From: Candidatus Iainarchaeum sp.
GTDB lineage: Archaea; Iainarchaeota; Iainarchaeia; Iainarchaeales; DTGL01
Length of the DNA stretch: 64,000 nt
Assembly (NCBI GenBank): GCA_038895395.1
Contig: JAWANJ010000001.1
Span: 298-64,297 of the forward strand
Direction: 5' to 3'
Shown here piece by piece: positions 241-40,696 of this stretch (positions within the stretch are counted from its first letter, which is position 1; every line of letters begins with the position of its first letter). The notes beneath the pieces are model-generated. The model worked only from the letters and a program-made list of their open reading frames with translations. It was not told the origin of the DNA and made no database searches. Made by a program: the position numbers and the translations under genes.

Positions 241-623
241 AATATCACCTTGGCTTTATCAGCGTCAACTGTTACAAACATGCCATTTTTTATTTTCCCT
301 ATCCTTACTTTATCAACGCAGGGTATTTCTGACAATATAGCACCTGCTGCAACTATAGCCTCACATTCTGCTAATACCATAGCAGCCGGCGCTTTGTTGT
401 TTTTCTTTAATCGATATATTGTATAGGTCCCTACTGTAGAACCTTTTCCATGTGGAAATACTAAAACTTTATCCGCAATACATTTTCCTTCAAGCTCATG
501 TCCTTTTTCTATAACTATGCCTGTTTCTGGATCCACACCACCAAAGAATGATATTGGCTGTTTAGTAACTAAGCACTCACCCTTGACTTTTCCAGAAGCT
601 ATCGTACGACCTTTTAAAATCAT
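237..623 (-). CDS. aconitase X small subunit-like (phosphomevalonate dehydratase small subunit, DUF126 family)
   Basis: 128-aa ORF directly downstream of the AcnX catalytic subunit with a 4-nt overlap. Size and operon position match the two-subunit AcnX-type mevalonate-5-phosphate dehydratase. Confidence 0.55.
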   Translation of the reverse strand: MILKGRTIASGKVKGECLVTKQPISFFGGVDPETGIVIEKGHELEGKCIADKVLVFPHGKGSTVGTYTIYRLKKNNKAPAAMVLAECEAIVAAGAILSEIPCVDKVRIGKIKNGMFVTVDADKAKVIF

Positions 624-1795
624 TTTATCGCCTCTTCAATGCACTCTTTTAATGATGCTATTCTAACCTTGAAATTGTTAGAACCCCTACCATAAAAACA
701 TGCCTTTGCAGAATTTGTCAACATATAGCCAAACCTGTTTTTAAGTGGAGCCACGGCTATGCATGTGTCACATATGATTTTTGCGCCTGCTTTTTCAATA
801 ATTTCAGTGTAGCCCATTGAATCAGCGATTTTTTTAACAGGCCTTGCACAAGTTATCCAAAACTCTTTTTTCACTTTTTTTCCTTTTAGCTCTTTTGCAA
901 TCTCACGTATTTCAACAATAGATGCGTGTGGACAACCTATTGCTATTAAATCAACGCTACCAGAATCACTTAAGGATTTTTTTGCTTTTTCAATATCCTT
1001 TCTTGTTATGTACACTTCTTTTTTCGGTGGCTTCACATTTTCAGGGGTTATATTTTCCATATGAAAAAGAGCGGTACCGCCAAAAGTTGCTATGGAAGCA
1101 CAAAAACTCTTAAGCTCATCTAAGCTAGCATGGCTTATGCCTTTAATGTAGGGTATTGAATTACCAATTTTTTCACCCAATGCTTTGCCAAATGCACCAA
1201 AGTCAGCCACGCCTGAAAGCTCAGCCTTTACCAAAACAGAGTACTTTGGCTTGCGATTTTTATCAAGATGAAAACCATATTCTGGTGTTTTGCCTGTAAG
1301 TGCACTAGCCAAACTTGAAAATCCGCTTTCTCTGTTAGTTCTAGCGCCGAGTACAGAGTTTGCGAAGCAAACAGCACTGCTCTCACTCCATGCTATATGA
1401 GAGCCATACTTTGGAATATTCCCTATCAAGTAAGGCGTGCAAGTACATGTGACTATTACCCCCATCTTCTTGAAAGCCTCTAAGATACGTTCTTGCTTTT
1501 CGACAAAATTTTTATCTATGCCTAGATTTTGCCAGTTTTCTAGATCTATGCCAGCGGGGTTTAAAGTTGTAAGTGGAACTCTTACCTTAGCGTCTTGGGC
1601 GAGTTCTTCAAGCAAGCTAAGGCCAGCGTCTCCCAGGTTTTGGTAACTAACGCCAGCAATCTGCACACTTTCAACTGGTATGAGTCTTTTTGCTGAGTAT
1701 ATGTTACCAAGTGCAACAAGCAGTTCCATTGCCTTTTTCGCAGCTTTTCCGTGTTTACCTTTAAGATATTCCTTTTCTTCGAAGCTTAGTTTCAT
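620..1795 (-). CDS. aconitase X catalytic (large) subunit-like; putative mevalonate 5-phosphate dehydratase
   Basis: 391-aa ORF embedded between the UbiD-like decarboxylase and the small-subunit gene inside the mevalonate operon. This is the architecture expected for archaeal AcnX (DUF521) phosphomevalonate dehydratase. Confidence 0.6.
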   Translation of the reverse strand: MKLSFEEKEYLKGKHGKAAKKAMELLVALGNIYSAKRLIPVESVQIAGVSYQNLGDAGLSLLEELAQDAKVRVPLTTLNPAGIDLENWQNLGIDKNFVEKQERILEAFKKMGVIVTCTCTPYLIGNIPKYGSHIAWSESSAVCFANSVLGARTNRESGFSSLASALTGKTPEYGFHLDKNRKPKYSVLVKAELSGVADFGAFGKALGEKIGNSIPYIKGISHASLDELKSFCASIATFGGTALFHMENITPENVKPPKKEVYITRKDIEKAKKSLSDSGSVDLIAIGCPHASIVEIREIAKELKGKKVKKEFWITCARPVKKIADSMGYTEIIEKAGAKIICDTCIAVAPLKNRFGYMLTNSAKACFYGRGSNNFKVRIASLKECIEEAIK

Positions 1796-3111
1796 TTCTT
1801 TTCACCAAGATATTTTTTAAGATCTACCTTTTCATAAGACACTCTCTTAAAATCATCCTTATTTTTGTTGGCGGGTATTGTGAGGTCGAACCCAACCTTG
1901 CATGTTATTCTGGTTTTTTGATCTGCGCTAGGATCAAGACTTGAGCCTTTTTGACCAGGATAGATATATAGTTGCTTGTCAGCTTGGAATCTAGTAGCTA
2001 AGGCCCATTCAACATCTTGCATGTTGTTTGCATCAATATCCTCATCTACAACAAAAACATGCTTGAGTGAACTATGACCTTTGAAAGCAGCTTTGACTAC
2101 TTTTTTTATTTGTTCATCATTTTCTTTGCGTATTTGTACTACAGCATGAAGCCATGAACAACCACCTTGCGTTATGTTTACATTTATGCATTTAGCAACT
2201 TTGTTAACTTCGTTAAATATTGTTGGTTCTCTTGGCATGCCCATAAGCAAGCCATGCTCATTACCACCAGGAAGAAGCGCATGCCAGATAGCATTTTTTC
2301 TGTGTGTTATTTTTTTTACTTTTAGAATAGGTTGCTTTCTAACAAGGTCCCTTGTACCAGTTAAGTCCAGAAACATACCTTCATTGGCAAGTTCATTCAT
2401 AGTAAGGGTGCCCTCAATAACAAACTCAGAGCTTGCCGGAACGTAAACATTTGCGAATTTTGCTTTTACAACATTAAAATCTTCTAAAGCGCTTGCAATT
2501 TCAAATTCAAATTGACCTATTGGTGGGCTGGTTGCACCAGCAAGTAGAACACTTGCTGGATTACCTATACAAACAGCAACGTCAAGCTCTCCGCCAGCTC
2601 TATTCAAAAATTCATATAGATTACGTTCGCAAACCCTTACTGAAAAATTCTTTTTGTCAAGCTGCATACATCTGTGAAATGATGCGTTCATTCCAAGTTC
2701 TTTGTCACGTGCAACGAAAACGCCAGATGTTATGTAGTTTCCACCATCGATTTTTGTATGCTTTAAAATTGGAAGTTTGTCAAGATCTATTTCTTCATCT
2801 TCAATTACAACCTCCTGACAAGGACCTTTCTTTGAAACCTTGAGCTTTTTTGGTTTATTTAGAGCATCAACCAGGATTCTTATTAGATCTTTTTCCTTGC
2901 AGTTAAAATATTTTGAGATGTAACGTTTTGATGAGAAAACATTTCCGGCAATCATAAAGTTGGATTCTCGAATATTTTCGAAAAGCACTGGTTTTCCATC
3001 TAATGCTTTTAGCACAGCTGCAGCTTCTAAATTTTTTGATACAGGCCTACTTATTTTTATTAGATCCCCCTCTTTTTCGAGTTTTTTTAAGAAGCTCCTA
3101 AAGTCCATCAT
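1792..3111 (-). CDS. UbiD-family decarboxylase; putative trans-anhydromevalonate 5-phosphate decarboxylase
   Basis: 439-aa ORF of UbiD size and character, located immediately downstream of UbiX (14-nt overlap) and upstream of AcnX in the mevalonate operon. Confidence 0.7.
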   Translation of the reverse strand: MMDFRSFLKKLEKEGDLIKISRPVSKNLEAAAVLKALDGKPVLFENIRESNFMIAGNVFSSKRYISKYFNCKEKDLIRILVDALNKPKKLKVSKKGPCQEVVIEDEEIDLDKLPILKHTKIDGGNYITSGVFVARDKELGMNASFHRCMQLDKKNFSVRVCERNLYEFLNRAGGELDVAVCIGNPASVLLAGATSPPIGQFEFEIASALEDFNVVKAKFANVYVPASSEFVIEGTLTMNELANEGMFLDLTGTRDLVRKQPILKVKKITHRKNAIWHALLPGGNEHGLLMGMPREPTIFNEVNKVAKCINVNITQGGCSWLHAVVQIRKENDEQIKKVVKAAFKGHSSLKHVFVVDEDIDANNMQDVEWALATRFQADKQLYIYPGQKGSSLDPSADQKTRITCKVGFDLTIPANKNKDDFKRVSYEKVDLKKYLGEKK

Positions 3112-3646
3112 CCCACCTCTTATACAGGTTATTTTTTACTCCAAGCAGATCAAGTATTTTGCCAACTATAAATGCTTCTAGGTCAGCAATGCTGCGTGGT
3201 TTAGAATAAAACCCAGGAGATAATGGAAATACAACTGCTCCATAAAGGGATATCTCATAGAGGTTCTTAAGCGTTGGTGGGCTCAGCGGAGTTTCCCTTA
3301 TGCAAACAATCAGCTTTTTTTTCTGTCGTAGCATGTTATCGGCACACCTAGCAATAAGAGTATCGGTATGTGCATTGGCTATATCACTAACTGTTTTTAC
3401 ACTAGCTGGAATGATTACCATAGCGTCTGTTATAAAACTAGAGCTAGATATGGAAGCTCCCAAATCATTGTTGTCGTGCATCTTTGACGCGTACCTTTCT
3501 AAGTTAGGCGCTTCTATTTCAGAAACTTTTTTAGACCATTCTGACATCACAAGGTGGGTTTCAATTTTTCTTTTTTTAAGTTCTTTGAGAAGCAACTTTG
3601 TATAGTTTAAACCACTTGCACCACATGCTGCAATTATTATTCGCAT
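3098..3646 (-). CDS. ubiX: UbiX-type flavin prenyltransferase (prFMN synthase)
   Basis: 182 aa. N-terminus MRIIIAACGASG... is the typical flavoprotein fold of the UbiX/Pad1 family. Adjacent to the UbiD-like gene. Confidence 0.8.
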   Translation of the reverse strand: MRIIIAACGASGLNYTKLLLKELKKRKIETHLVMSEWSKKVSEIEAPNLERYASKMHDNNDLGASISSSSFITDAMVIIPASVKTVSDIANAHTDTLIARCADNMLRQKKKLIVCIRETPLSPPTLKNLYEISLYGAVVFPLSPGFYSKPRSIADLEAFIVGKILDLLGVKNNLYKRWDDGL

Positions 3647-4629
3647 TCCTTGACACCCTCCACACCTATTTTAGTTATTATTGCTTGTGCCCCTGTTGAT
3701 TCTATGGCTTTTGCTATTTTTTTCTCTGTTCCATTTTTTGCTAGAGCAAACATTACACCGCCCCAGCCACCACCACTTAGCTTAGCGCCAAGAGCACCCG
3801 CATTTAAAGCTTCTTTTATGCAGTCATCGAGCTTTGGATGACTCAGGCCTAGTTTAGAAAGTATCTTTTGATTTTTGTTCATAAGCGAACCTAGTAAAGG
3901 TTCATCTTCCGTTTGAAGAGCTTTTTCTATTGAATTGCAAATCAAAGCAATCTTTTTGAATTGCTTCTGGACAAATTCAGGATATCTTCGAATTAAAGAG
4001 GGCATGTGCATACCAACGGTAAGAGCTGTTGGAGCTCTTATATTGGTGTTTCCTATAACAACACTAAATCTATGTACCCCAAGGTTTTCAAAGCTGAGAG
4101 AAATTTTGCCTTCTGATCCAATCTTTTGAATCTTGTGATAGCCACCAAAAGAGCTTGAAAGAATCTCACTGCCGGAAGCTTTACCACCATGTACCTTAAC
4201 TTGAAGAGGATAAAGATATTTGAAAAAATCTTCTTTTTTTATACCAAAATCAAAAAGAAGATTTAATGCATGTAGAGATGCACTTAGCACAGCAGTGCTT
4301 GAGCTAAGACCAGACTCAACAGGAACATCAGATTCTATGCTTAGCCTAATGCCTCTTTTAATACCATGTTTTTTAATCAGGATCTCAATTAAGTCAAAAA
4401 AGATGTATAACTCCTTTTTACCGTGTCTGTTCAAAACTTTTTCGGATTTTAAGGATGCCTTGGCTTTACCAAGCTCTCTGCTTTCCACTATGATTGATCT
4501 ACTTTTTAAAATTGAGGCTGTGCAATATGCTCTTAGGTCAACTGCGGTCACTACTGCCGGATAACCATAAACGACAGCATGCTCACCAGCAAAAAATATA
4601 TTTCCTGGAGCACTCGCCTTTACAGACAC
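3637..4629 (-). CDS. mvk: mevalonate kinase (GHMP kinase)
   Basis: 330 aa. N-terminal SAPGNIFFAGEHAVVYG matches the MVK motif APGKxxLFGEHAVVYG. GHMP-kinase Gly-rich ATP loop (LSSSTAV) is present. Confidence 0.8.
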   Translation of the reverse strand: MSVKASAPGNIFFAGEHAVVYGYPAVVTAVDLRAYCTASILKSRSIIVESRELGKAKASLKSEKVLNRHGKKELYIFFDLIEILIKKHGIKRGIRLSIESDVPVESGLSSSTAVLSASLHALNLLFDFGIKKEDFFKYLYPLQVKVHGGKASGSEILSSSFGGYHKIQKIGSEGKISLSFENLGVHRFSVVIGNTNIRAPTALTVGMHMPSLIRRYPEFVQKQFKKIALICNSIEKALQTEDEPLLGSLMNKNQKILSKLGLSHPKLDDCIKEALNAGALGAKLSGGGWGGVMFALAKNGTEKKIAKAIESTGAQAIITKIGVEGVKECE

Positions 4630-4655
4630 TTTAGAAACCTCTTTGATTGATAATA

Positions 4656-5057
4656 TTAACTTATAACTTTGAATTTATAACCATAGGTAATAGTGCCATA
4701 TTTGTCTGGTTCACCTACTCTCCTAAAAACCTTTTTTACTTTTGCACCAATCTTTATAGCTTCTGGTTCGGAGTCAACTATTTGTGCTAAAACCCTTGCT
4801 TTGTTTTCTAGCTCTATTAGGGCTAGGTAGTATGGCACCTCGTTTTTGAAACCTTCTGGTGGCACATATACTCTAGTGTAGCTTATTATTTTGCCAAACC
4901 TAGGCATATCCATTTGAACAAGTTTGCCTTTTCTTCTACAGTTGGGACATATTGCTCTGGGCGGGAAAAAAGCTTGCTTGCAGACTTCACAGTAGTTTCC
5001 TCTCAACAAGTATCTTTCAGGAAATCTTCTCCAGTTGAGAGGTGCAACGTTTTGCAC
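4656..5057 (-). CDS. DUF35 OB-fold/Zn-ribbon protein (scaffold partner of thiolase/HMG-CoA synthase)
   Basis: 133 aa with CxxC...CxxC ribbon (CEVCKQAFFPPRAICPNCRRKG). Sits 4 nt downstream of the thiolase, which is the conserved archaeal thiolase-HMGCS-DUF35 triad. Confidence 0.75.
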   Translation of the reverse strand: MQNVAPLNWRRFPERYLLRGNYCEVCKQAFFPPRAICPNCRRKGKLVQMDMPRFGKIISYTRVYVPPEGFKNEVPYYLALIELENKARVLAQIVDSEPEAIKIGAKVKKVFRRVGEPDKYGTITYGYKFKVIS

Positions 5058-5061
5058 AATA

Positions 5062-6231
5062 TCACCCTTTGAATTTTTTATAAATTGTTACAACCGCTGT
5101 AGCACCTGAACCACCGACATTGTGGCTCAAACCTATCTTTGCTTTTTTCACTTGGCGTTCCTCAGCCATCCCCATTAGCTGGTAATAGGCTTCGACTGCT
5201 TGAGCTACACCAGTAGCGCCAACGGGGTGTCCTTTTCCTTTTAGCCCACCACTTGGGTTTATAGGAATCTTTCCTTTAAGCGAGGTATATCCTTTTTCTG
5301 TTGCAATACCACCTTCACCTTTTTCAAAGAAACCAAGATCTTCAATTGCTAAGATCTCCGCTATTGTAAAACAATCATGCACTTCTGCAAAGTCAATATC
5401 CTTTGGGCTTAGCCCTGTTTTTTTGTACGCTTTTTGTGCAGCCATTCTTGTGGCTTTTAGCTCCACCAAACTTTTCCTTCCAGTTATGGCCAAGGTATCT
5501 GAAGCTTGTTCTGATGCAAGTATTTCAACGCCTTTAAGGCCGAGTTCTTCAGCTTTTTGGTTTGAACATAAAATAAGTGCTGCTGCTCCATCCGTTATTG
5601 GTGAACAATCTAGCACTTTTATTGGTTCTGCTACATATCCTGACTTCATAACTTCTTCTATGGTTATTATGCGATGGAACTGTGCATTGGGGTTTAGCAT
5701 TGCATTTGCGTGGTTTTTAACAGCTACAGCTGCCATTTGTTCTTCGGTTGTGCCAAACTCATTCATATGCGCTCTTGCTAAAAGCGCATACAAACTTGGA
5801 AAAGTAGCACCGTGAAAGAGCTCAATCTCTTGGTCTCCTGCGCCACCTAAAGCAAAGCTAACTCCTTCTGTGCTAAGCTCAGTCATCTTTTCAACACCAC
5901 CAACAGCAACAATATCATGGACACCACTTTTTATTGCGAGATAAGCAGTCCTTAATGCAACACCACCAGAAGCACACGCTGCTTCGACTCTTGTACTAGG
6001 TATTGGATTTAAACCAAGCTGGTCTGCTATCAAAGCACCTATGTGCTCCTGCCCTATGAATCTCCCTGATGCCATACAACCGCCATAAATAGCTTCAATT
6101 TTTTCTCCTTGAAGGCCTGAGCTGCTTATTGCCTTTATTGCTGCATCTAGTATAAGTTCCCTAAACGATAGATCCCAGTGTTCATCAAATTTTGTAACAC
6201 CGGCCCCAACTATTACCACCATTTTATTCAC
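5062..6231 (-). CDS. acetyl-CoA C-acetyltransferase (acetoacetyl-CoA thiolase)
   Basis: 389 aa, archaeal thiolase (SCP-x-type) fold with active-site cysteines. Immediately downstream of HMG-CoA synthase. Confidence 0.85.
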   Translation of the reverse strand: MNKMVVIVGAGVTKFDEHWDLSFRELILDAAIKAISSSGLQGEKIEAIYGGCMASGRFIGQEHIGALIADQLGLNPIPSTRVEAACASGGVALRTAYLAIKSGVHDIVAVGGVEKMTELSTEGVSFALGGAGDQEIELFHGATFPSLYALLARAHMNEFGTTEEQMAAVAVKNHANAMLNPNAQFHRIITIEEVMKSGYVAEPIKVLDCSPITDGAAALILCSNQKAEELGLKGVEILASEQASDTLAITGRKSLVELKATRMAAQKAYKKTGLSPKDIDFAEVHDCFTIAEILAIEDLGFFEKGEGGIATEKGYTSLKGKIPINPSGGLKGKGHPVGATGVAQAVEAYYQLMGMAEERQVKKAKIGLSHNVGGSGATAVVTIYKKFKG

Positions 6232-7272
6232 CTACAAACTTTTTATCTTTCGTCTGTGTTTAAGATATATCGCATAGTCAATATACTCTTTTTCTTTTAT
6301 CATCTCAAGCACAGGTATTTTTGCTCTACGCTCAGAGATAGCATCAGTGGTGTTTATAACAAAAGCATCACTGCCAGCACCACTTCCATAGCTAACAGCA
6401 AGTATTTTTTGACCTGGCTTTGCAATATCAAGAATGCTTGCTAAGCCTATCATGGTAGCACCGCTGTATGTATTTCCTATGTAAGGTGTTAGCAAACCTT
6501 GTTCTATTTTTTTTGAATCTATTCCAAGAATGCTAGCAACCTTTAAAGGAAATTTTCCATTTGGCTGATGAAAAACAGCATAGTCAAAATCGGATGCTTT
6601 ATAACCAGTATCTTCAAGGATCATCTTGGCTGCACCCAAAACATGTTTGAAGTAAGCCTCTGCTGTAAATCTGCCTGTATGCTCAGGAAAATCTGCTTTT
6701 GGTCTACGCCAAAAATCAGGCATGTCACTTGTGTAGCTGCAGGTTGCCTCAATTTCGGCAATGACCTCATCTTTGTTATCGCCTATGAAAAAGGCACCAG
6801 CACCACTTGCAGCTGTAAATTCTAAAGCATCGTTTGGTTTGCTTTGGGCTGTGTCAGAACCTATGGCTAAGCCAACATCAATCATCTTTGCTTTTTTTAA
6901 TGCATAGCATATTTGCATACCAGCAGTACCTGCTTTACAAGCAAACTCAAGGTCAACAGCAAAGTATCTGTTTGTTGTACCTATGGCATCACCTACGATG
7001 CTAGAAGTTGGGTTAACTGCGTAGGGGTGACTTTCAGAACCAACATAAATTGCATTAATTCTTTTTGGATCTATAGAGAAGTCTTCTATGCCACGTCTTG
7101 CTGCCTCAACTGCTAAAGTGCATGCATCTTCGTCTATAGCAGCGACAGCTTTTTCATAAACACCAATCCCACCAGAACTCTTTTGCCATACTCGCTCGAT
7201 TTCGCTAACTTTTATTCTTAATTTAGGTATATATGCGCCATACCCAATAATTCCAACGACCATCTCAAGCAC
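6232..7272 (-). CDS. hydroxymethylglutaryl-CoA synthase
   Basis: 346 aa. N-terminal MVVGIIGYGAYIPKLRIKVSEI is typical of archaeal HMGCS. Overlaps the HMGR stop by 8 nt. Confidence 0.85.
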   Translation of the reverse strand: MLEMVVGIIGYGAYIPKLRIKVSEIERVWQKSSGGIGVYEKAVAAIDEDACTLAVEAARRGIEDFSIDPKRINAIYVGSESHPYAVNPTSSIVGDAIGTTNRYFAVDLEFACKAGTAGMQICYALKKAKMIDVGLAIGSDTAQSKPNDALEFTAASGAGAFFIGDNKDEVIAEIEATCSYTSDMPDFWRRPKADFPEHTGRFTAEAYFKHVLGAAKMILEDTGYKASDFDYAVFHQPNGKFPLKVASILGIDSKKIEQGLLTPYIGNTYSGATMIGLASILDIAKPGQKILAVSYGSGAGSDAFVINTTDAISERRAKIPVLEMIKEKEYIDYAIYLKHRRKIKSL

Positions 7273-8530
7273 CTTGCTTAATTTTTTTCAGGATTTCTCT
7301 TGCAAATGCCTCATTTATTTGGTTATTTTCAATCATGGCCATGGCGACCTTTTCTATTTCGTCTCCTGTTGCACCAGCTTGAATTGCTATGTTTTTGGCA
7401 TGAAGTCGCATATGACCATATTGGATTCCTGTTGTTGCGAGAGCGTAGAGTGCAGCAAAATTTTGAGCTAAACCAACAGCACCCATAACTTCTGCAAGTT
7501 CTTTTGCACTTTTTACCCCCAATATCTTTAAGCACAATTTTGCCATTGGATTTACCCTTGTTGAGCCACCCACTATACCAACTTGAATAGGTATTTCAAT
7601 TTCGCCAACCAAGTTGCCTTGTTTATCTTTCCAGTATTTTGTTAGTGGTTTATATTTACCCGACAGGCTAGCATAGCTATGAGCTCCGGCTTCTAAAGCT
7701 CTGAAATCATTTCCAGTAGCTATTGCTACAGCGTCAATGCCATTCATTATACCCTTGTTGTGTGTTGTTGCCCTAAAGCGATCAGCACAAGCAAATTTCC
7801 AAGCTTTTATTATATCTTCCACCACTCCCTTAGAGGAATCTTTTTCTAGCTCTACCTTGGAAAAAACAGCCCTTGCTTTAACCAGTCTATAGATGGCAAG
7901 ATTTGATATTATTTTAATGCCTGTCTTACATTTACAAATCTGTTCTATGTAAGGTGCTACACGCTCACACATTGTATTTATAGCATTTGCACCCATCGCA
8001 TCTTTGACATCAACTAGCAAATGCAAAACCATGAATTCCTTAAATCTCCTGATTTCTATATCTTTTGCACCACCGCCATAAGAAACAAGTATCTTATCTG
8101 TTGAATTTGCAATTTCCAATATCTTTTCTTTGTTCTGTTTTATTAACCTGGTAACCTTTTGCTGTTTGCTGCCCTTTGCAAAGATTTGTACTTGTCCAAT
8201 CATGATTTGCTCTGTTGCTTTAGATTCAAAACCTCCTAAAAACCTAGCAAACTTTGCACCCTTGCTTGCTGCAGCAACAACACTTGTTTCTTCTATGGCC
8301 ATTGGCACAAGATAGTCCTTTCCGTTTATTAGAAAATGGGTTGCAATGCCCAATGGCAAACCAAAAATGCCGACAACATTTTCAATCATCTTGTCTGCTA
8401 TTTGAAAGCTAATAGGTTTAAGTTCTTTAAGCAATGTGACCTCTTCTTCTGAAAGCCCACACACATATTTTAATATTTGAAGCCTTTCTTCAAAAGTTTT
8501 ATTATAAAAACCACTTATTTTAGAACCCAT
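7265..8530 (-). CDS. hmgA: HMG-CoA reductase (class I)
   Basis: 421 aa, class-I-like HMGR in length and character (specific catalytic motifs not traced), first gene of the operon. An archaeal TATA-like element (reverse complement of ~8570-8585) lies upstream. Confidence 0.85.
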   Translation of the reverse strand: MGSKISGFYNKTFEERLQILKYVCGLSEEEVTLLKELKPISFQIADKMIENVVGIFGLPLGIATHFLINGKDYLVPMAIEETSVVAAASKGAKFARFLGGFESKATEQIMIGQVQIFAKGSKQQKVTRLIKQNKEKILEIANSTDKILVSYGGGAKDIEIRRFKEFMVLHLLVDVKDAMGANAINTMCERVAPYIEQICKCKTGIKIISNLAIYRLVKARAVFSKVELEKDSSKGVVEDIIKAWKFACADRFRATTHNKGIMNGIDAVAIATGNDFRALEAGAHSYASLSGKYKPLTKYWKDKQGNLVGEIEIPIQVGIVGGSTRVNPMAKLCLKILGVKSAKELAEVMGAVGLAQNFAALYALATTGIQYGHMRLHAKNIAIQAGATGDEIEKVAMAMIENNQINEAFAREILKKIKQGA

Positions 8531-8785
8531 TAGAACACACCTTGCAATAAATGTGAACCTACGAAAGAAATTAAAATAGTTCGATTTTTGGCTATTGCAA
8601 TTTCGTCAAAAAGCGATTTTATGAATATGTCTCGAGGGTGGCAAAAATTGTTTTTAATTTTCACGCGGGGGGGTTTTAAGATAGGTTTTTATAGTAAAGG
8701 AGTAAATTTAAATGGTAAAGGAGTACTAGCTAAATTTTATTGAATTATTATGGTGTTTTAGTTTTTAATTAAGATTACATTATTT

Positions 8786-9520
8786 ATGGTGCATGTGATG
8801 CCAAAAATCATAGGCAACAAACCCAAGTTTTATGAAAAAGCTAGGGCTTGGTATAAAAAACAAGGCAAGATAGATGTGCCTGGCTTTAAAAGGATTGAAA
8901 TCAAAAACAATAAGAACAGTCTTTTAGTGGTTTTTAATGGCAAGCGTTATGAGCTTAGGAAGTTTGGTCAAGGTTACGCCAACATATTAAGAAAAAAACC
9001 AATATATACATTTGTATCTGAACAAGGACGCATTTTAGTTGTTACAGAGTTTCTCCATAAAACACTCACAAAAGAACTTGTTCTTGAAATTGACGCATAC
9101 CATGCTGATTTACTTGCTGGGGACGTTGGTTTTAGAAGATTGTTGCATACAAACGTAAACATAATACTAGATCTTGAGATAGCGTACGATAGTTACTTCT
9201 ACTGGTGTCAGGGCGTTAACAAAAAACATTTAACAGGGCAAGCACCTGAATGGCTTAAAGGCAAAGGGTTTGGTTTGTTTGTAGAGTCTCTAAGACAAAT
9301 TAGGCTAGCAAAGCTTGGTGTTAGTAAATGGTTTGCTTCAATAATACCTGAAAAAGAAAGTTTGGAATTTGCTGAGCTTAGAGGTTTTCGTAAGCCAACT
9401 TTGGAAGAGATACTTTTGCTAGCGAAAGCAACATTGCGAAAGGAGCCTGACAAACGTACAATAAGACAAATGTTGAAAATCTATCATGTGAAAGACATTC
9501 CACCAATAAAAGGCAAATGA
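8786..9520 (+). CDS. hypothetical protein (244 aa), no recognisable motif
   Basis: Long ORF with coding-like composition, ending 4 nt before the ThyX-like gene. No catalytic motif identified. Confidence 0.4.
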   Translation: MVHVMPKIIGNKPKFYEKARAWYKKQGKIDVPGFKRIEIKNNKNSLLVVFNGKRYELRKFGQGYANILRKKPIYTFVSEQGRILVVTEFLHKTLTKELVLEIDAYHADLLAGDVGFRRLLHTNVNIILDLEIAYDSYFYWCQGVNKKHLTGQAPEWLKGKGFGLFVESLRQIRLAKLGVSKWFASIIPEKESLEFAELRGFRKPTLEEILLLAKATLRKEPDKRTIRQMLKIYHVKDIPPIKGK

Positions 9521-9524
9521 TTTT

Positions 9525-11045
9525 TTGAGGTGTTTTGGTATGTTTTATTCTGATGATGATAAAAAAATTTTGGAAAATTTTGTAACAAACCTTGACAAGA
9601 ATATTTATATCGTACACAATCTGCCGCCAGAGGTTGTTTCAGTGCTATTTGCTTATGTTAGCAGATCTCCAGAGAGCTTTAGGACAAATCTTTTGAAATT
9701 GGTTAAAGAAGGAAACTTAGATTTGCATACTGGAGAAAAAAGCAAGGAGGTTGTTTTAGAAAAAGCAATAAAAAAAGCCTCCGATTTTCAAAGGAAATGG
9801 GTTGTTGGCTTTGGCCATTTTAGCATAGCTGAGCATGCAGTAGTTCATATTGCAATAGAAAACATAAGCATACTTGCTACCAAGATATTGGAAGACAATA
9901 GGCTTGCAAGTTATACGGAAAAAAGCACAAGATATCAAAAATTTGATAGAAACACTTATTACAAACCAAAAAAAATAATTGAGTCGAAATATGGCAAAAA
10001 CTATGAGGAAACCCTAAACGGTTTATTCGATTTTTATGTTGAGAGTTTCCCTGTTGTTGAAAACTATTTCAAAGAGAAATATCCTAAAAAGGAAGAGATG
10101 AGCGAGCAATATTATGCTTCTTATATAAAGTCAAAAGCTTGTGATGTTCTTAGATACTTGCTTCCAACTGCAACGCTCACTAATTTAGGTGCAACTTTCA
10201 ATGCAAGATCTCTTGCTCACGCTATAGAAAAATTATTGTCGCATCCACTAGAAGAAGCTCAGCAAATTGGACAAGATATAAAAGCCGAGGCTACGAAAAT
10301 TATGCCAACACTTGGTGGTTTTGCTGAGAAAAGCACATACATTCAAGAAACTACAAGAGGGCTTCAAGAGTTGGCCAAAAGTGAGATTTCAATGAAATCA
10401 GGTAAAAGGTCTTTAAAAAAACACAATGAAAACAAGGTAAAATTGGTTAACTATACATTGGATGCTGAAGAAAGACTTATAGCTGCAATTATGTATAAGT
10501 TTGTTGATCTACCTTATCAAAAAGTTTTGGAAAAAGTTAAGAAGATGGACAACAAAAAGAAAAAGATTGTTTTTGAAGAATTTTTTAAAAGGATCTCTAA
10601 CAAAGATGCGCCGTTAAGGGAGCTTGAACATTCATTCTACACTTTTGAGATCACAGTTGATTATGGTGCATATAGAGATCTGCAAAGACACAGGATGTGT
10701 ACTCAAACAACACAAATGTTAACAACCAAGCATGGTTTTTGCATTCCAGAAGAGATGAAAAATTTAGGGCTTGAGAAGGAGTTTGTTGATCACATGAAAA
10801 AGGCCAATGAATTATACTTTTCATTGGTTGATGAGTTCCCATATGAAGCTCAATATTGCGTACCGCTTGCATTTAGAAACCGGACAATCTTTACAATGAA
10901 CGCTAGAGAGCTATACCACATAATAAGGCTTAGGTCTGGCAAGGCAGGCCATAAAAGCTACAGAAAAGTTGCTCAGCAGATGTACTTTGAACTACAAAAA
11001 GCACAGCCATTGATTGCGAAATACTTTGCGGTTGATTTGAGCTAA
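9525..11045 (+). CDS. thyX: FAD-dependent thymidylate synthase ThyX, tandemly duplicated (pseudo-dimeric); N-terminal copy degenerate
   Basis: 506 aa, twice the normal ThyX length. The C-terminal half has RHR (DLQRHRMCTQ) and the downstream MNARELYHIIRLRS...AHKSYRKVAQQM ThyX signature. The N-terminal half has GHFSIAEHAVVHIAIENIS and ...NARSLAHAIEKL but with RHR replaced by EDNRLAS. Confidence 0.55.
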   Translation: MRCFGMFYSDDDKKILENFVTNLDKNIYIVHNLPPEVVSVLFAYVSRSPESFRTNLLKLVKEGNLDLHTGEKSKEVVLEKAIKKASDFQRKWVVGFGHFSIAEHAVVHIAIENISILATKILEDNRLASYTEKSTRYQKFDRNTYYKPKKIIESKYGKNYEETLNGLFDFYVESFPVVENYFKEKYPKKEEMSEQYYASYIKSKACDVLRYLLPTATLTNLGATFNARSLAHAIEKLLSHPLEEAQQIGQDIKAEATKIMPTLGGFAEKSTYIQETTRGLQELAKSEISMKSGKRSLKKHNENKVKLVNYTLDAEERLIAAIMYKFVDLPYQKVLEKVKKMDNKKKKIVFEEFFKRISNKDAPLRELEHSFYTFEITVDYGAYRDLQRHRMCTQTTQMLTTKHGFCIPEEMKNLGLEKEFVDHMKKANELYFSLVDEFPYEAQYCVPLAFRNRTIFTMNARELYHIIRLRSGKAGHKSYRKVAQQMYFELQKAQPLIAKYFAVDLS

Positions 11046-11055: not shown

Positions 11056-13332
11056 TTATTTTCTTGCTAACAAATCCGCGTAGTACTGTTTACATTCCAA
11101 TCTCCAGTTCACTGTAAGAACTATTTTTATTCCATCACCCGTGTAAGCCACATTTATATCCTTATCAGATAGTTTATCACACATTGATGCTCCAGTTCCG
11201 CTATAGAAACCATAGTTAGCATAGCATTGTGGCACTTCGTAGATAAAGTAATACTCTTTTGTAGAGGTATATTTTGCCATATTTTCTTCGGTGAATTTTT
11301 TCAGGGCTTCACACAATGGAAGGATATTTTTTGCAGTGTTGGGATCGTAACCGTAGTAAGTTAAAATCCTGCTCAAGCAATATTGCTTAACCGTCAAATC
11401 AGTGGTGTCAGTAAGGCAGCTTTGCACCTTCGCTTCTATGTTTACGTCCTTTGGTGTGACTGTTGGAGATGGCGTTATCGTATAGTAGCCAAATGAAGGA
11501 TAGCATGATGTTTTATCGCATTTCTTGCCTATGCAGACGTTAAGGTATATTGTGCCATAGTCGCTCAGGTTGCTTTCAACATCTGCTGAGACTTTCTTTA
11601 TTTCCCCGGGTTTTATTTCATAGAAGCCAATGTTTTTGTCGAAAATGATATTTTTCCTATAGTAGTCTGAATAGCCCTTTATTGTCAGGTCTCCAGAATA
11701 ATCTTTTGTAGCATATTTGTTATTTAACCTAAAACTTATGTTGTTTTTGTCGCAAGTCAAGTTGTCTATATAAAAGTAGTTGTACGAATAGCTAGTGCTA
11801 CAATAACCATATTTGACACATTCATCTTCAATGCAAACCTCAAGGGACTCGGAGCCAAAAAGCGTGGTGTTTGGGTTAAACTCAAAGCGTTTCTCTTTGT
11901 ATGATTTTAATGAAACATACCCCAGGTCCTTTTCTACTAAAGTTTCACCTGAAAAGCCATCTTTGAGTTTTGCCTTCAAAGTGCCTTGCATTTCCGAGTA
12001 TGGATACAGCACAAAGGAAACATTTTCATCGCTGCAGCTTGCAGAATATATAGTAAATGTGTAAGTGTAGGGGGAGATATAACAACCGTAGCTCCTGCCC
12101 TTTTGGCATTTGTCGCCTACGCACAACTGGACTTCTTTTGAGCCTTCAGACAAATTTTTATCTGGAACAATCTTAAAGTCCCTGGATTCAAATGCTTTTA
12201 GGCTTATTTCACCAAGGTTCTTCTCAAGTTCGATATTTGAGTCAGCCCCATTTGAAGAGTACTCATCATAGTATAGCCAACTAGAGTATCTTAAAAGAGT
12301 TAGCTTTGCCTGCCCTCTTAGATCTTCTAAGGCGGTTAGCTTTATGGAGATCTGTTTTTTGCTGCAGTTTGCATCTATTAAAAAGGGTACTGGGGGCTTC
12401 AAATCTTGCTCATTAACTTTGCCAAACTCTATTTTTTTCAGTTCAAACTTTAATGACATCTCCATCGGCTTTTTTAGACCTTTCATCTTTATAGAAAAGT
12501 TGGAATCCATTAAAGCTAAAATCCCGTGCTCTTTGTCGAGGCAAACCTCGGCGTTAAACTTTATTTCCTCATAAATTGAATCCTTCTCATAGTTGACATC
12601 TGAAAGTAAAGAAAAACCAGTAGGAAACTTTGGCTGTTCCTGTGTTAATGAATTGCTGCTATTTGCTGCTGCCAAATATGCGCTACTGCTAAGCAGCGGG
12701 ACATTTATATCCTTGCCACTGTAAGAAATTGCGTAGCATCTTGTATTCCTTTCAGCTATTTTTTTCTCATTGATAAAAGAGATATTATAATCTGTCTTTT
12801 TTGTCAAATCTGTGCTTTGGGCCATCTTCGATGGGTCAAATGCTGAGTAATAATCTTCCTTGCCAATTTGGCATTCCCATGTACTTTCTTTTGTTGGGCT
12901 GTGTGTTCCATTAATTGATGCATATCTTGTCTTTTGGCAGGTGATTGATTTGTCGTTTATCAGATAAACTTCAGTTTCAGTTTCGATACTGAGAAAACTC
13001 ACAATCAAACTGGTTTTATTTTGTGATCTTGAGAGGTGAGTTTGTGTTATATCAAAACTATAATTAAGGGCCATGCCAGGGCCATATCCTAAATATCCTA
13101 AACTACTAAAGATGTTTTGGTTTTGCATTGAAAGAGACATTATATAATCTGCTTTGTAGGGCGGCGCATCAAGACCTTTTTGTGAAAGCGCTTTGTATTC
13201 TTCTTCAACGCTCATTGGTTTTGGAAGTATAATTTCTCTTAGCTCAGGGATAAGAAATAATGCAGAAATAGCTGCTGCTGAGATAATTATTAAAACAACC
13301 AAAACAATTAATTCTACCCTCATAAAATCCAC
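11056..13332 (-). CDS. secreted/membrane-anchored Cys-rich surface protein with three internal repeats and many N-glycosylation sequons
   Basis: N-terminal hydrophobic anchor (LIVLVVLIIISAAAISALFLI). More than 12 N-x-S/T sequons. Three ~110-aa repeats each containing C-x(2,3)-C-x(n)-C-x-C-like patterns (LCVGDKCQKGRSYGCY..., LEVCIEDECVKYGYCST..., LNVCIGKKCDKTSCYP...). Confidence 0.6.
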   Translation of the reverse strand: MDFMRVELIVLVVLIIISAAAISALFLIPELREIILPKPMSVEEEYKALSQKGLDAPPYKADYIMSLSMQNQNIFSSLGYLGYGPGMALNYSFDITQTHLSRSQNKTSLIVSFLSIETETEVYLINDKSITCQKTRYASINGTHSPTKESTWECQIGKEDYYSAFDPSKMAQSTDLTKKTDYNISFINEKKIAERNTRCYAISYSGKDINVPLLSSSAYLAAANSSNSLTQEQPKFPTGFSLLSDVNYEKDSIYEEIKFNAEVCLDKEHGILALMDSNFSIKMKGLKKPMEMSLKFELKKIEFGKVNEQDLKPPVPFLIDANCSKKQISIKLTALEDLRGQAKLTLLRYSSWLYYDEYSSNGADSNIELEKNLGEISLKAFESRDFKIVPDKNLSEGSKEVQLCVGDKCQKGRSYGCYISPYTYTFTIYSASCSDENVSFVLYPYSEMQGTLKAKLKDGFSGETLVEKDLGYVSLKSYKEKRFEFNPNTTLFGSESLEVCIEDECVKYGYCSTSYSYNYFYIDNLTCDKNNISFRLNNKYATKDYSGDLTIKGYSDYYRKNIIFDKNIGFYEIKPGEIKKVSADVESNLSDYGTIYLNVCIGKKCDKTSCYPSFGYYTITPSPTVTPKDVNIEAKVQSCLTDTTDLTVKQYCLSRILTYYGYDPNTAKNILPLCEALKKFTEENMAKYTSTKEYYFIYEVPQCYANYGFYSGTGASMCDKLSDKDINVAYTGDGIKIVLTVNWRLECKQYYADLLARK

Positions 13333-27678: not shown

Positions 27679-28703
<1,025 letters not shown>

Positions 28704-28707
28704 TTAG

Positions 28708-29944
28708 ATGGCTGGGCTAAAATTAAATGAAATTGTTAAGAACATTGAGGAGGTTAATTTCAGCGAGGTTGAAAACAAGGTTGTTTTGCTAAGAGTTGAT
28801 TTAAACAGCTCAGTTAAGGATGGAAAGCTTCTAAAAAGCCCAAGAATTGTGGGTCACTTTCGTACCATAAAAACCTTTTTAGATCACAAGGCCAGGTTAG
28901 TTATACTAGCACATCAGGGACGAAAAAGGCAGAGAAGATTTTATCTCTTTGAAACAGCATGTTGAAATGTTAAAGCAAATGCTAGGAGATGAAATCGAAT
29001 TCTGTACTTGGGACGAAGATTATGTTGCTAAGATAAAAAACCTTAAACCTGGCAAGGCCTTAATGCTAGAAAACACCAGGTTTTTAGACTTTGAAACCAA
29101 TGAGATAAGCAAAGAAGAGCACGCAAAGAATCCTGTGATTCAGAAGATTGCTTCAGTCAGCGACATGTTTGTGTTGGATGCTTTAAGTGTGTCACATAGG
29201 TGCCATGCGAGCGTTGTTGGTTTTATACCTTTGTTGAAAAGCTACGCTGGGCCTATTTTATATTCTGAACTTAAGGCTTTGGCAAAGATGTCTAAAATAA
29301 AGGGCAAATCAACCTTCGTGTTAGGTGGTATGAAACCGGATGACTCTATTTATATAATGGAAAAGATGCTTAGTTCAGGAAAGGCGAGCAAAGTACTATT
29401 AGGTGGAGGCTTAGGTGAGTTAGCGTTAATTGCTAATGGTGTAAAACTTGGTGGTAAAGAGCAGGTACTTAAAGATAAAGGCATGATGGAATTTGTACCA
29501 AAACTTAGAGATCTTATTAAGAAGTATAAAAAAGAGATTGTATTACCACAAGATTTAGCGATTGAAAAAAACACCCTTCGCGAGGAGGTTTCTATAAAGA
29601 GTTTACCTGTAAACGAAATGACTTTTGACATAGGTGAAAAAACAGCAGACCTATATTCTAAAGAGATAAAAAAAGCGAAGGTTATAATTGCAAACGGTCC
29701 AGTAGGCAAATTCGAAGCAGAGTACTTTTCGTTTGGCACAAGAAAGGTTCTTGATGCAATGGCAAATTCAAAAGGATTTAGTTTGGTTGGCGGAGGAGAC
29801 ACAGTAACAGCGATAGCCAGACTGGGTTTCAAAGAAAGTGAGTTCGACCATGTAAGCTTGGCAGGGAAAGCCTTGCTTGAGCTGCTTGCTGGTGAAGAGT
29901 TGTTTGGTCTTGAAGCTCTTGCCGAAGCAAAGTACAAAAAATAA
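28708..29944 (+). pseudogene. pgk: phosphoglycerate kinase interrupted by a +1 frameshift in an A5 homopolymer (28923-28927); could equally be a sequencing error
   Basis: ORF 28708-28965 is the PGK N-terminus (…VLLRVDLNSSVKDGKL…LVILAHQGR). ORF 28949-29944 is the rest. Removing one A from cgaAAAAAggc restores ...HQGRKGEDFISLKQHVEML... Confidence 0.7.
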
Positions 29945-30048: not shown

Positions 30049-31236
30049 ATGAATAGTTTTCACGTTTTAATGTTAGGTTGGGAATTTCCACCATTCAAGT
30101 CAGGGGGTCTTGGCACTTATTTGTTGGGTTTCACAAAAGCATTAAACTCCCTAGGCGTTAAAATAACTTTCATTATGCCATATACTGGCAAAAGTTTAAA
30201 ATACGATTTCATTGACATCATACAGGCTGACGGTATTGAAATTTTTGGCATAAGCTCAGGCTTGACACCATACTTTGTAAAAGGTGTTGATGGTGAAAAT
30301 AGAACTTCTGTTAGTAGCGTGTATGGTTGGCGGTTTTTCGATGAGGTGAAATATTACACTCAAAGGGCAATAGCAATAGGATCTAAAATAGAATGTGATG
30401 TGATTCACTGCCATGATTGGATGACTTACATGGCAGGCATAGCGCTTAAGAAGATTCTGAAAAAGCCTCTGGTTGTGACAATACATAGCACAGAATATGA
30501 CCGCACTGGAAACCTTTTTCCCAATGCTGAAATAGTCAGTATTGAAAGACGGGGTCTTACCGAGGCAGATATGGTAATAACAGTGAGTGAATATGAAAAA
30601 AGGCAGATTATTGAAAAGTATGGCATTGAACCAAACAAAGTTGCTGTTGTTTATAACGCCATAGACCTTGAACAATATAAGCGCAAAAATATTGAGAAGT
30701 ATTTGAACGACAGAATTGTTCTTTTCGTTGGGAGGCTTACAGTACAAAAGGGCGTAGATTTTTTCATCGAAGCTGCAAAGAAGGTACTTGAAAAGAATAA
30801 AAGTGTGAGGTTTGTTATTGTTGGCTCCGGAGATCAAATGCCACATCTAATACAAAAAAGCATCAGCTTGGGAATAGCAGACAGAGTACATTTCGTTGGT
30901 TTTGAAAATGATGTTTCTAAGTATTATTCGATTGCTGATGTTTTTGTGATGCCAAGTGTTTCTGAACCATTTGGTTTAACTGCATTAGAAGCACTTGCAT
31001 GTGAAGTGCCTGTGATAATAAGTAAACAGAGTGGAGTTAGTGAAGTTATAAGGAACTGTTTAAAGGTTGATTTTTGGGACACTCAAGAGTTGGCTAACAA
31101 GATAATTGCAATGTTGTATTATCAACCACTGTATGAAGAATTGAAAGAAAGATCAAAAATGGAAATTTTGAAGTATAGAAGTTGGAGGGATGTCGCCATA
31201 GAATGCCTGGAAATTTATCGCTTAGTTGCAAGGTGA
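30049..31236 (+). CDS. glycosyltransferase, glycogen synthase-like (GT5/GT4, KxGGL type)
   Basis: N-terminal MLGWEFPPFKSGGLGTYL resembles the GlgA K-T-G-G-L motif. 395 aa GT-B fold. Confidence 0.65.
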   Translation: MNSFHVLMLGWEFPPFKSGGLGTYLLGFTKALNSLGVKITFIMPYTGKSLKYDFIDIIQADGIEIFGISSGLTPYFVKGVDGENRTSVSSVYGWRFFDEVKYYTQRAIAIGSKIECDVIHCHDWMTYMAGIALKKILKKPLVVTIHSTEYDRTGNLFPNAEIVSIERRGLTEADMVITVSEYEKRQIIEKYGIEPNKVAVVYNAIDLEQYKRKNIEKYLNDRIVLFVGRLTVQKGVDFFIEAAKKVLEKNKSVRFVIVGSGDQMPHLIQKSISLGIADRVHFVGFENDVSKYYSIADVFVMPSVSEPFGLTALEALACEVPVIISKQSGVSEVIRNCLKVDFWDTQELANKIIAMLYYQPLYEELKERSKMEILKYRSWRDVAIECLEIYRLVAR

Positions 31237-32440
31237 TATTTTGAAAAAAATATGTTTTTACTTTCAAGTGCACCAACCTATGCGCATAGGAAAATATTCT
31301 TTTTTTGATATTGGAACAGGTAAAAGTTACTTCGATGAAGAAAAGAACAGGGCGTATTTGGAACGCGTAGTAAAAAAATGCTATGGACCAGCAACTGCAC
31401 TAATAAATGAGCTTATTAATGAAACTGATGGTGCTTTCAAGGTTAATTTTAGTATTACAGGCACTTTAATTGAACAGCTAGAAAAATATTTTCCAAAAAT
31501 TCTTGAAAGCTTTATTGCAGTTGTTGAAACGGGTTGTGCGGAATTGTTTAATGAAACTTATTATCATTCACTTTCCTTTTTGATTTCAGAAAGGGAATTT
31601 AAAGAGCAGATAAAGCTTCACAGAAAAAAGATAAAGGCTGTTTTTGGTGTTAAACCCAAGGTATTTAGAAACACTGAGGCAGTATATAACAATGACATAG
31701 CTAAAATTGTTTCGAAACTTGGGTTTAAGGCTATTGTGACTGAGGGTAGTGAGAAGATATTAGGTTGGAGAAGCCCAAATTACTTGTATAAAGCAAAGGG
31801 AGAAGATATCTTACTTCTTTTAAGAAACTATAGGCTTAGTGATGACATTGCGTTTAGATTCTCTGAGAGAAGCTGGACGGAATATCCTTTGACAGCAGAT
31901 AAGTATGCATATTGGATAGCGGCCACACAAGGAGAATGTGTAAACATATTTATGGACTATGAAACCTTTGGTGAGCATCAGTGGCCTGAAACAGGAGTTT
32001 TTGATTTCTTAAGACATTTGCCAATGGAGATTTTAAAGTATCGTGACTGTGAATTTGCTTGTGCATCTGAAGTTATAAAGAAACTTGAACCAAAAGATGA
32101 GCTGGATGTTCCGTATTTTTTGTCATGGGCTGATATAGATAGAGACTTGTCAGCTTGGCTGGAAAACAGAATACAAAGGCATGCTTTCGAGGAGATCAGG
32201 GCTCTAGAAAAAGCAGTTAGGAAAAGCAAAAATCTGGATATTTTGCATAGCTGGCGCTTGCTGCAAACATCAGACCACTTTTATTATATGTGCACAAAGT
32301 GGTTTGCGGATGGCGATGTACACAAATATTTCAATCCTTACGAGACGCCTTATGATGCATATATAAATTATATTAATGTGCTAAACGATCTAAAGATGCG
32401 CTTAGGTATTAACGCCCAGCAGCAAGCTCATATGCGTTAA
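31226..32440 (+). CDS. glycoside hydrolase family 57 protein
   Basis: N-terminal FYFQVHQPMRI matches the GH57 HxHQP signature. 404 aa. Confidence 0.65.
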   Translation: MQGDILKKICFYFQVHQPMRIGKYSFFDIGTGKSYFDEEKNRAYLERVVKKCYGPATALINELINETDGAFKVNFSITGTLIEQLEKYFPKILESFIAVVETGCAELFNETYYHSLSFLISEREFKEQIKLHRKKIKAVFGVKPKVFRNTEAVYNNDIAKIVSKLGFKAIVTEGSEKILGWRSPNYLYKAKGEDILLLLRNYRLSDDIAFRFSERSWTEYPLTADKYAYWIAATQGECVNIFMDYETFGEHQWPETGVFDFLRHLPMEILKYRDCEFACASEVIKKLEPKDELDVPYFLSWADIDRDLSAWLENRIQRHAFEEIRALEKAVRKSKNLDILHSWRLLQTSDHFYYMCTKWFADGDVHKYFNPYETPYDAYINYINVLNDLKMRLGINAQQQAHMR

Positions 32441-34220: not shown

Positions 34221-34287
34221 CTAATCGCCTTTCAATAGTAATTAAAATAATAAAGGTTAAAATAACTTTCATTTTAACAATTAGAAT

Positions 34288-37108: not shown

Positions 37109-37227
37109 AAACAGCACAGAGGGTATTGTTCCGATAATGAAGCTCTAGCAAAAGTTTTAGGTGAGAAGATTGATTATAAAGATTTGGATCATAAACACAA
37201 AATTTAAATATTAAAAAAACATATATT

Positions 37228-37521
37228 ATGTGGTTCTTAGTTTTATTTATGAAGGGAGGGTTTGAGATGACTGTGAGGCTTTCAGAGCTTTTTGGAAAGG
37301 AGATATATACTGTTGACGGGGAAAGAAAAGGCAAGGTTTTTGACCTTGTAATAAATTTAGAAAAAGGACGTATAGAAACCATAACTACTGAACCTTTAAG
37401 AGCAAGTTCTAAAGCAGAGGCTAGAAAGATAATAACTGAAAAAAGCATACCTTATAGTAAAGTCATATCTGCAAAAGACATATTGTTGATTTCTACAAGA
37501 CAGGAAGTTTCAAAGCAATAA
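37228..37521 (+). CDS. PRC-barrel domain protein
   Basis: 97 aa. LSELFGKEIYTVDGERKGKVFDLVINLEKGRI is typical PRC-barrel. Confidence 0.5.
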   Translation: MWFLVLFMKGGFEMTVRLSELFGKEIYTVDGERKGKVFDLVINLEKGRIETITTEPLRASSKAEARKIITEKSIPYSKVISAKDILLISTRQEVSKQ

Positions 37522-37690
37522 CTCTTTGTTAAGGTTTCAACAATTGCATCTACGTTACTAACGTTAAAATGCTACCATGGTTTAGTAGCCAATTCTAAAA
37601 AGATTGTTATGTACAAAGCAAAGTTTTTAATTTTTTTCAAATATTTTTATACATAAACATCGTCAAAACAATTGTTTTTTATTATCGGAA

Positions 37691-38275: not shown

Positions 38276-38278
38276 TGC

Positions 38279-38728: not shown

Positions 38729-39075
38729 ATTTATAGTTAATACTGTATTTACTTAAAAATTTTACTGTAAAAACTAGTAATGTAAGTAATTACAAGTAAT
38801 GATAAAAAGAAAAAAATTACACAGTTTATTCGTCTTTTTTATGATCCCTAACCATAACAAACTTAAAAATCTGTTTGTATTTTATTTTGTAACTTATTTT
38901 TTTACATATTTGAAAAAATGCAAAAAATTTGGTTTTGTAAAAATTAATTAAAAATTACATAGATTAACCACCAAAACATTTTGCAATTTTAATTAAAACC
39001 ATAATTAGCGTGAATTACAAACTACAATAATGAATAATTAAAATTTAGAAATTTCGCTTAGGTGAAATTTTAACT

Positions 39076-40586: not shown

Positions 40587-40587
40587 T

Positions 40588-40678: not shown

Positions 40679-40696
40679 ATAAATTGAGGTGAGTTT

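Follow-up and report, generated by a model that had tools for sequence, protein, structure and literature searches.

How does a thymidylate synthase gene of double length work when neither half of its product carries the whole active-site motif of the enzyme, and is the gene in front of it a partner? Both questions are raised by a thyX gene of the archaeon Candidatus Iainarchaeum sp. It was found in a 64,000-nucleotide stretch of DNA (assembly GCA_038895395.1, contig JAWANJ010000001.1, positions 298 to 64,297 of the forward strand), here called the window, and coordinates given without another locus name refer to it. The gene is located on the plus strand at 9540..11045 and encodes 501 aa followed by a stop codon. 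Two Thy1 domains, a match to TIGR02170, an AlphaFold2 model and Foldseek comparisons identify the product as a tandem-domain flavin-dependent thymidylate synthase (FDTS or ThyX). With a probability of about three in four, it is a bona fide thymidylate synthase of a tandem (double-length) ThyX subfamily in which the active-site residues are divided between the two halves; its catalytic activity is presumed from these features.

The longest open reading frame (ORF) around thyX extends from a TTG codon at 9525 to 11045 (+) and would specify 506 aa. It is unbroken and contains no internal stop. The TTG start is probably wrong. The ATG at 9540 (MFYSDDD...) is preferred because it is where the deposited protein and every homologue start. 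The deposited protein has 501 aa (P0001, FAD-dependent thymidylate synthase from a Candidatus Diapherotrites metagenome-assembled genome) and is 100% identical to the ThyX of the window. GAGGTG, a Shine-Dalgarno-like hexamer, occupies 9527-9532 and ends 7 nt 5′ of this ATG. Residue numbers follow the 501-aa protein; in the 506-aa numbering they are higher by 5.

Two ThyX domains in one chain

The Pfam family Thy1 (PF02511) matches the protein twice and is significant for each half scanned singly, with E=3.1e-25 for the N half and E=1.2e-27 for the C half. The first-pass annotation, made from the letters of the window, had read two ThyX-like halves in this ORF and had named a profile comparison of the N half as a check; both the reading and the check hold. 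The whole chain scores 106.8 bits against the TIGR02170 thyX equivalog, for which the cut-off is 87.9. Alignment with the T. maritima ThyX and conservation counts place the N-terminal ThyX-like half at 9540..10391 (+, residues 1-284) and the C-terminal half at 10392..11042 (+, residues 285-501). The two halves have diverged to the point where BLASTP detects their relation with barely significant confidence (E 0.017). Profile-profile comparison gives a probability of 91%, an E of 9e-7 and 20% identity. No internal repeat was found in the thyX gene at the DNA level, which indicates that the duplication is ancient.

An AlphaFold2 model of the 501-aa chain, for which 50 homologues were used, shows the whole chain as one unit with high confidence (pLDDT 90.4, pTM 0.89). 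It is a model of the monomer, and the pTM of 0.89 stands for a defined mutual arrangement of the two halves and nothing beyond that. The top 50 Foldseek matches in the PDB are all ThyX/FDTS structures, with a TM-score per target of 0.62-0.75. Sequence similarity of the tandem protein to PDB entries is weak (E about 1e-4). Each half has the same fold and belongs to the same Pfam family as the canonical homotetrameric enzymes of T. maritima (TM0449, PDB 1O26), M. tuberculosis, H. pylori and PBCV-1. The tandem protein differs from these in having two domains in 501 aa, of which the C half carries RHR and the N half S....SxRY. It is thus an internally duplicated ThyX, as had been proposed, and the stoichiometry of the canonical homotetramer must change.

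Active-site residues are split between the halves

The positions of the catalytic residues were obtained by aligning 60 N halves and 60 C halves with the T. maritima (Tm) ThyX, whose sequence was checked to be identical to PDB 1kq4/1o26. The N half keeps one set of residues. Tm H53 corresponds to H93 (P358 in the C half), R147 to R205 (Q438 in the C half) and E86 to E127, where C halves have N or T (T391 in the window protein). The loop S88, G89, R90, Y91 is represented by S129, T130, R131 and Y132 in the N half and falls in a four-residue deletion in the C half. Tm S83 is S124 in the N half and T388 in the C half. The C half keeps the other set. Here Tm R74 is R379 (K115 in the N half), R78 and H79 are R383 and H384 (D119 and N120), E144 is E436 (not conserved in the N half) and R174 is R465 (K231). 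Tm R80 is found in both halves, as R121 and R385, and E58, H59, N163 and R165 are likewise kept in both.

The split is visible in the two signature segments. The N-half motif K-I-L-E-D-N-R-L-A-S-Y-T-E-K-S-T-R-Y (9882..9935, +, residues 115-132) has DNR instead of RHR and retains S..E.S.RY. The C-half motif R-D-L-Q-R-H-R-M-C-T-Q-T-T-Q (10674..10715, +, residues 379-392) has a whole RHR followed by the four-residue deletion at the S-x-R-Y site. A contiguous RHRxxSxxxxSxR is therefore absent from either domain, the N half reading DNRLASYTEKSTRY and the C half RHRMCTQTTQ plus the deletion. The ThyX motif is complete solely across both halves, and this state is the same throughout the subfamily.

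Among the 60 closest homologues the residue states are invariant at all but three positions, where the variation is among non-canonical residues: N120 (N/S/T), the C-half E86 site (N/T/S) and the N-half E144 site. The pattern extends to a wider set of 80 species representatives, 38-54% identical, that includes archaea and bacteria (DPANN, Patescibacteria, Methylomirabilota, Armatimonadota, Chloroflexota, Acidobacteriota and Polyangiales). In the N half of these 80 species R78/H79 never occur, and S88, R90, R147 and H53 always do. In the C half RHR and R174 are always present and H53/R147 never. S129, R131 and E127 are found in 80/80 representatives; position 132 is Y in 78 and F in 2. R383, H384 and R385 are found in 81/81 sequences. 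Tm H53, R74, R78, H79, R80, E86, S88, R90, R147, N163, R165 and R174 are each conserved in one half or the other. Compared with canonical ThyX, all FAD- and dUMP-contacting residues examined are thus present somewhere in the tandem chain, and the chemistry is expected to be the same.

The first-pass annotation had seen the same RHR in the C half and DNR in the N half, which sequence and alignment confirm, and had taken one half to be degenerate. In its strict form this would mean that the N half is an inert pseudo-domain with a structural role only and that the C half alone is catalytic, so that each chain would have one live site and one dead one. The confinement of RHR to the C half speaks for such an arrangement. 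However, the S88-G89-R90-Y91 loop is missing from the C half, in which H53 and R147 are replaced by P and Q. Since the loop is deleted, the C half is unable to supply the dUMP-binding loop named in PMC3498832. The N half retains those very residues in 80/80 species and is as conserved as the C half. A catalytically inert N half is consequently improbable. Strong constraint acts on both halves, and the residues missing from one are complementary to those missing from the other, so the N half is better described as specialised than as degenerate.

The positions at which the N half has lost the arginines show a pattern of their own. K115 and D119, at the Tm R74 and R78 sites, are one helical turn apart (window 9882-9896) and are K and D in 66 sequences. 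In more distant members the two appear to co-vary, with E at 115 in 14 sequences and S/A/G at 119 in 14, each position being counted separately. The equal counts at positions 115 and 119 suggest an i/i+4 salt bridge between K115 and D119 that may replace the lost arginines.

A predicted dimer of tandem chains

The active sites of canonical ThyX are built from more than one subunit. In the inhibitor structure of PBCV-1 ThyX, Gln75 and the strictly conserved Arg182 of a site come from monomer A, and Ser88/Gln89 of the same site come from monomer B (PMC3498832). The ThyX of Chlamydia trachomatis is among the enzymes used in that work. PBCV Arg182 probably corresponds to Tm R174, given an offset of +8 that also maps PBCV Glu152 to Tm E144. 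From their shared helix and motif, the subunit that provides Q75/R174 in canonical ThyX would also provide R74, R78 and H79. With these assignments the C half would represent the monomer-A set and the N half the monomer-B loop, plus H53 and R147. By analogy with the structure in PMC3498832, the residues now divided between the halves would meet at one site in three dimensions.

The subfamily probably originated by an old internal duplication with a later division of the active-site residues between the halves. Two tandem chains would associate into a pseudo-tetramer of four ThyX-like domains. Two of its sites, formed by C halves together with N halves, would be complete, and the two reciprocal sites would be without every one of these roles. 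A four-domain assembly is therefore predicted to have two complete sites and not the four of canonical ThyX. The enzyme would convert dUMP to dTMP with CH2-H4folate, FAD and NAD(P)H as in other ThyX proteins, using one catalytic site per chain. The dimer-of-tandems assembly, its two active sites per dimer and catalysis itself are predictions from sequence.

A number of points weigh against the bona fide synthase with divided sites, or limit how far it can be taken. No tandem ThyX was found in the PDB, where every sequence or fold match is to a chain of roughly 200-270 residues. How the halves pack and how many sites are complete is deduced from sequence and from the subunit assignments of one paper, and the subunit origin of H53, E144 and R147 is an assumption of the site model. 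The replacement residues are themselves conserved (K231 in 80/81, P358 in 77/81 and K115/D119 in 66/81 sequences), so the second pair of sites may be more than a dead remnant. R80, N163, R165 and E58 are retained in both halves, and the FAD stoichiometry is not fixed by the residue pattern.

These conserved features have a further reading. Because the replacement residues are near-invariant across archaea and bacteria and R80, N163, R165 and E58 persist in both halves, the vestigial site pair could have taken on a new function, such as that of a regulatory or an NAD(P)H/nucleotide-binding pocket. We regard this as a speculative and rather doubtful extension.

Distribution and genomic context of the tandem gene

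The first-pass annotation implied that the tandem gene is a rarity. A scan of one genome per GTDB species finds the tandem form in at least 577 species. Carriers include Iainarchaeota/Diapherotrites, Woesearchaeota, Aenigmatarchaeota, Micrarchaeota, Pacearchaeota and many Patescibacteria, and further Methylomirabilota, Armatimonadota, Chloroflexota, Acidobacteriota, Entotheonella and Polyangiales. More than 120 homologues of 480-530 aa span 95-100% of the query. The window ThyX is 47-66% identical to proteins of the same length from DPANN, Patescibacteria and Blastocatellia. Tandem proteins are already named FAD-dependent thymidylate synthase or ThyX in existing annotation, and the window gene is a typical member of a widespread kind. 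Proteins of this kind are reported to have been described by Liu and Yang as having 'distinctive ThyX motifs', and the characterised, biochemically active ThyX of Chlamydia trachomatis is reportedly of about this length and of the tandem type. No paper describing tandem ThyX was found in a literature search that covered neither Liu & Yang 2004 (J Bacteriol 186:6316) nor Leduc 2004.

In other lineages the tandem gene is found among genes of the dTTP pathway. On an Aenigmarchaeota contig (L088) it lies between genes for a thymidylate kinase, a dCTP-deaminase/dUTPase, a second kinase and a dCMP deaminase. On a Patescibacteria contig (L089) it is accompanied by dCMP deaminase, dUTPase and thymidylate kinase genes, and on a Blastocatellia contig (L090) a dUTPase gene adjoins it. 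This context argues that the tandem gene encodes a thymidylate synthase. The window gene shares its complementary residue pattern with the 80 species representatives of the tandem (~480-530 aa) subfamily and differs from some other lineages in lying outside any dTTP operon. It is found in a housekeeping region, preceded by mevalonate genes and followed by the gene for a 758-aa unknown surface-type protein, beyond which come MinD, PPDK, Pus10 and GGPP synthase. A thymidylate kinase gene is present in the window at 56433-57086, 45 kb from thyX. Neither a thyA nor a second thyX was detected in the 64-kb window by tblastn.

The same evidence bears on the idea that the tandem protein is not a dTMP synthase at all and uses the ThyX fold for another substrate, such as a modified pyrimidine or an RNA or DNA base. 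The first-pass annotation had pointed in this direction by recalling hypermodified-pyrimidine synthesis in viruses. That neither half has the full ThyX motif, that sequence similarity to PDB entries is weak (E about 1e-4) and that folate genes are not seen near thyX on this DPANN contig are all compatible with a different substrate. Yet the halves jointly keep all dUMP- and FAD-contacting residues examined, the TIGR02170 cut-off is passed and dTTP-pathway operons contain the gene in three distant lineages. The window has no thyA, and its thyX sits in a housekeeping context (mevalonate genes, PPDK, Pus10). Another substrate is thus distinctly improbable, and the viral or hypermodified-pyrimidine role does not agree with the presence of the tandem gene in dTTP-synthesis operons.

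The upstream GNAT-like gene

The gene that precedes thyX is located at 8798..9520 (+) and encodes a protein with a predicted GNAT fold that belongs to a small DPANN-restricted family. Its start is most likely the ATG at 8798, as in P0121 and in the alignment of homologues, giving 240 aa (MPKII...); the ORF as called from 8786 has 244 aa. It was described at first as 4 nt away from thyX and as having no recognisable motif. With the thyX start at ATG 9540 the gap becomes 19 nt. This spacer (9521..9539, +) consists of a T6 run at 9521-9526, right after the stop codon of the upstream gene, followed by the GAGGTG and the 7 nt before the ATG. Oligo-T runs are termination signals in archaea. Given the T6 run behind the upstream stop codon, co-transcription of the two genes is a possibility, and by itself it would not be meaningful. 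A promoter and terminator scan around both genes gave no more than shuffled controls did, with consensus sequences of bacterial type that are not suited to archaea. No RNA families were found by Rfam near the two genes. On the other side of the gene, in the intergenic region shared with the divergent HMG-CoA reductase gene, are the 19-nt direct repeats TTTTTATAGTAAAGGAGTA and TTTAAATGGTAAAGGAGTA, 21 nt apart (8686-8725, +). The pair may serve to bind a regulator, or the two may match by chance.

As far as sequence profiles go, the protein indeed has no recognisable motif. Pfam, NCBIfam and PDB profile searches with the 244-aa protein gave no match, and none of 19 family members matched Acetyltransf families at E<=10. 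The predicted structure tells otherwise. The AlphaFold2 model is usable (pLDDT 82, pTM 0.81), Foldseek matches it to the HAT domains of GCN5/PCAF with E about 5e-4, and the model contains a GNAT core fold. The most conserved segment, P-x-W-L-K-G-K-G-F-G-L-F, fits the CoA-pyrophosphate loop of GNAT enzymes (Q/R-x-x-G-x-G/A) at the β4-α3 junction. In the loop K158-G-K-G161-F-G163, 19/19 family members have G at position 161, 19/19 have either G or A at position 163 and 14/19 have K or R at position 158; a helix (162-176) follows. The segment F-A-E-L-R-G-F is similar to GNAT motif B. An additional basic segment at the N-terminus and a small beta-rich region set the protein apart from the GNAT superfamily, clear α1-α2 helices are not visible in its model and no GNAT profile detects its sequence. 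It is read as a divergent putative acyl-CoA N-acyltransferase. The family is very small: a search of 1.84 billion clusters finds 17 representatives, and these are DPANN-like metagenomic sequences only.

Homologues of the gene keep other company. In L001, L003 and L006/L007 the GNAT-like gene is located between a gene for an unknown protein of ~295 aa and a MinD/ParA-like ATPase gene, in trios at L001 5110-7583, L003 643-3142, L006 2548-4990 and L007 1355-3797. The ~295-aa proteins have a basic N-terminus and are mutually homologous with 29-60% identity. The window contains no copy of their gene by tblastn. In L002 and L004 the GNAT-like gene is near an S-layer_C protein gene, and the ~295-aa proteins showed no relation to the S-layer_C proteins that flank these other homologues.

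The gene has been proposed as a co-transcribed accessory or modifying partner of ThyX, with a nucleotide kinase or a hydroxymethylase accessory protein among the suggested roles. It is on the same strand as thyX, 19 nt away, a Shine-Dalgarno-like site precedes thyX and in L001 a homologue is less than 1 kb downstream of thyX. But homologues are away from thyX in four of five contexts: those in L002, L003, L004 and L006/L007 do not adjoin it, and what recurs is the MinD/ParA-like ATPase and the ~295-aa unknown. L001 alone has thyX nearby, with another gene intervening. Beyond the window only one in five tandem-thyX contexts (L001) has a homologue close by. Close relatives differ in what occupies the slot between HMG-CoA reductase and thyX: the GNAT-like gene in the window (8531-9539), a 57-aa ORF and a HAD hydrolase gene in L091 (3192-3992) and a MazE/PIN toxin-antitoxin pair in L001 (2879-3475). 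The 17 family representatives contrast with thousands of tandem ThyX proteins. The T6 run right after the stop codon also speaks against a partnership, and the predicted GNAT fold has no known role in ThyX catalysis. A partnership, be it as a kinase or as a hydroxymethylase accessory, is thus very unlikely. A local rearrangement in this variable slot seems to have brought the two genes together, and the GNAT-like gene is an unrelated neighbour of thyX.

The last explanation, an assembly or frameshift error that would have fused two adjacent thyX genes into the 506-aa ORF, has nothing but the unusual length in its favour and is practically dismissed by the continuous frame, the more than 120 independent full-length homologues, the single ORFs at 80 genome loci and the single-chain pTM of 0.89.

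Other features of the window

The genes that precede this region form a complete-looking mevalonate cluster of archaeal type at 620-8530 (-), which is syntenic with L001 and L091. It comprises, all on the minus strand, AcnX (620-1795), a UbiD-family decarboxylase (1792-3111), a UbiX-type flavoprotein (3098-3646), a GHMP/mevalonate kinase (3637-4629), a DUF35/OB-fold protein (4656-5057), a thiolase (5062-6231), HMG-CoA synthase (6232-7272) and HMG-CoA reductase (7265-8530). Directly 3′ of thyX, the 758-aa protein (11056-13332, -) is Cys-rich, has an N-terminal hydrophobic segment and has no Pfam match. A 756-aa protein, also with no Pfam match, occupies the equivalent position in L091 (5499-7769, -).

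Further along, the glycolytic genes for GAPDH and PGK (27699-29944) are followed by a glycogen/α-glucan cluster (30049-36168) that encodes a GT4/starch-synthase-like glycosyltransferase, a GH57 protein, a glycogen synthase and an amylo-α-1,6-glucosidase. The region 36212-40700 may be a small integrated element. It opens with a tyrosine recombinase/integrase gene (36212-37108), behind which come small unknown ORFs and the stretch of lowest G+C content in the window (0.30 at 38001-40000). Three tRNA genes are located at 39076-40678 and a fourth at 42222-42293. A long RelA/SpoT homologue of 608 aa (43124-44950, -) contains HD, RelA_SpoT synthetase, TGS and ACT domains. Long multidomain proteins of this type are unusual in archaea, and this one may have been acquired horizontally. 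An archaeal SRP RNA is encoded at 45068-45338.

Implications

The 'hypothetical protein' upstream of thyX can be re-labelled as a divergent GNAT-fold protein whose usual companions are a MinD-like ATPase and a ~295-aa gene. For the tandem ThyX subfamily, the split of the motif between the halves yields a clear testable prediction, namely one catalytic site per 500-aa chain. The ThyX enzyme class is an antimicrobial target, and its tandem form is one for which there is no solved structure.

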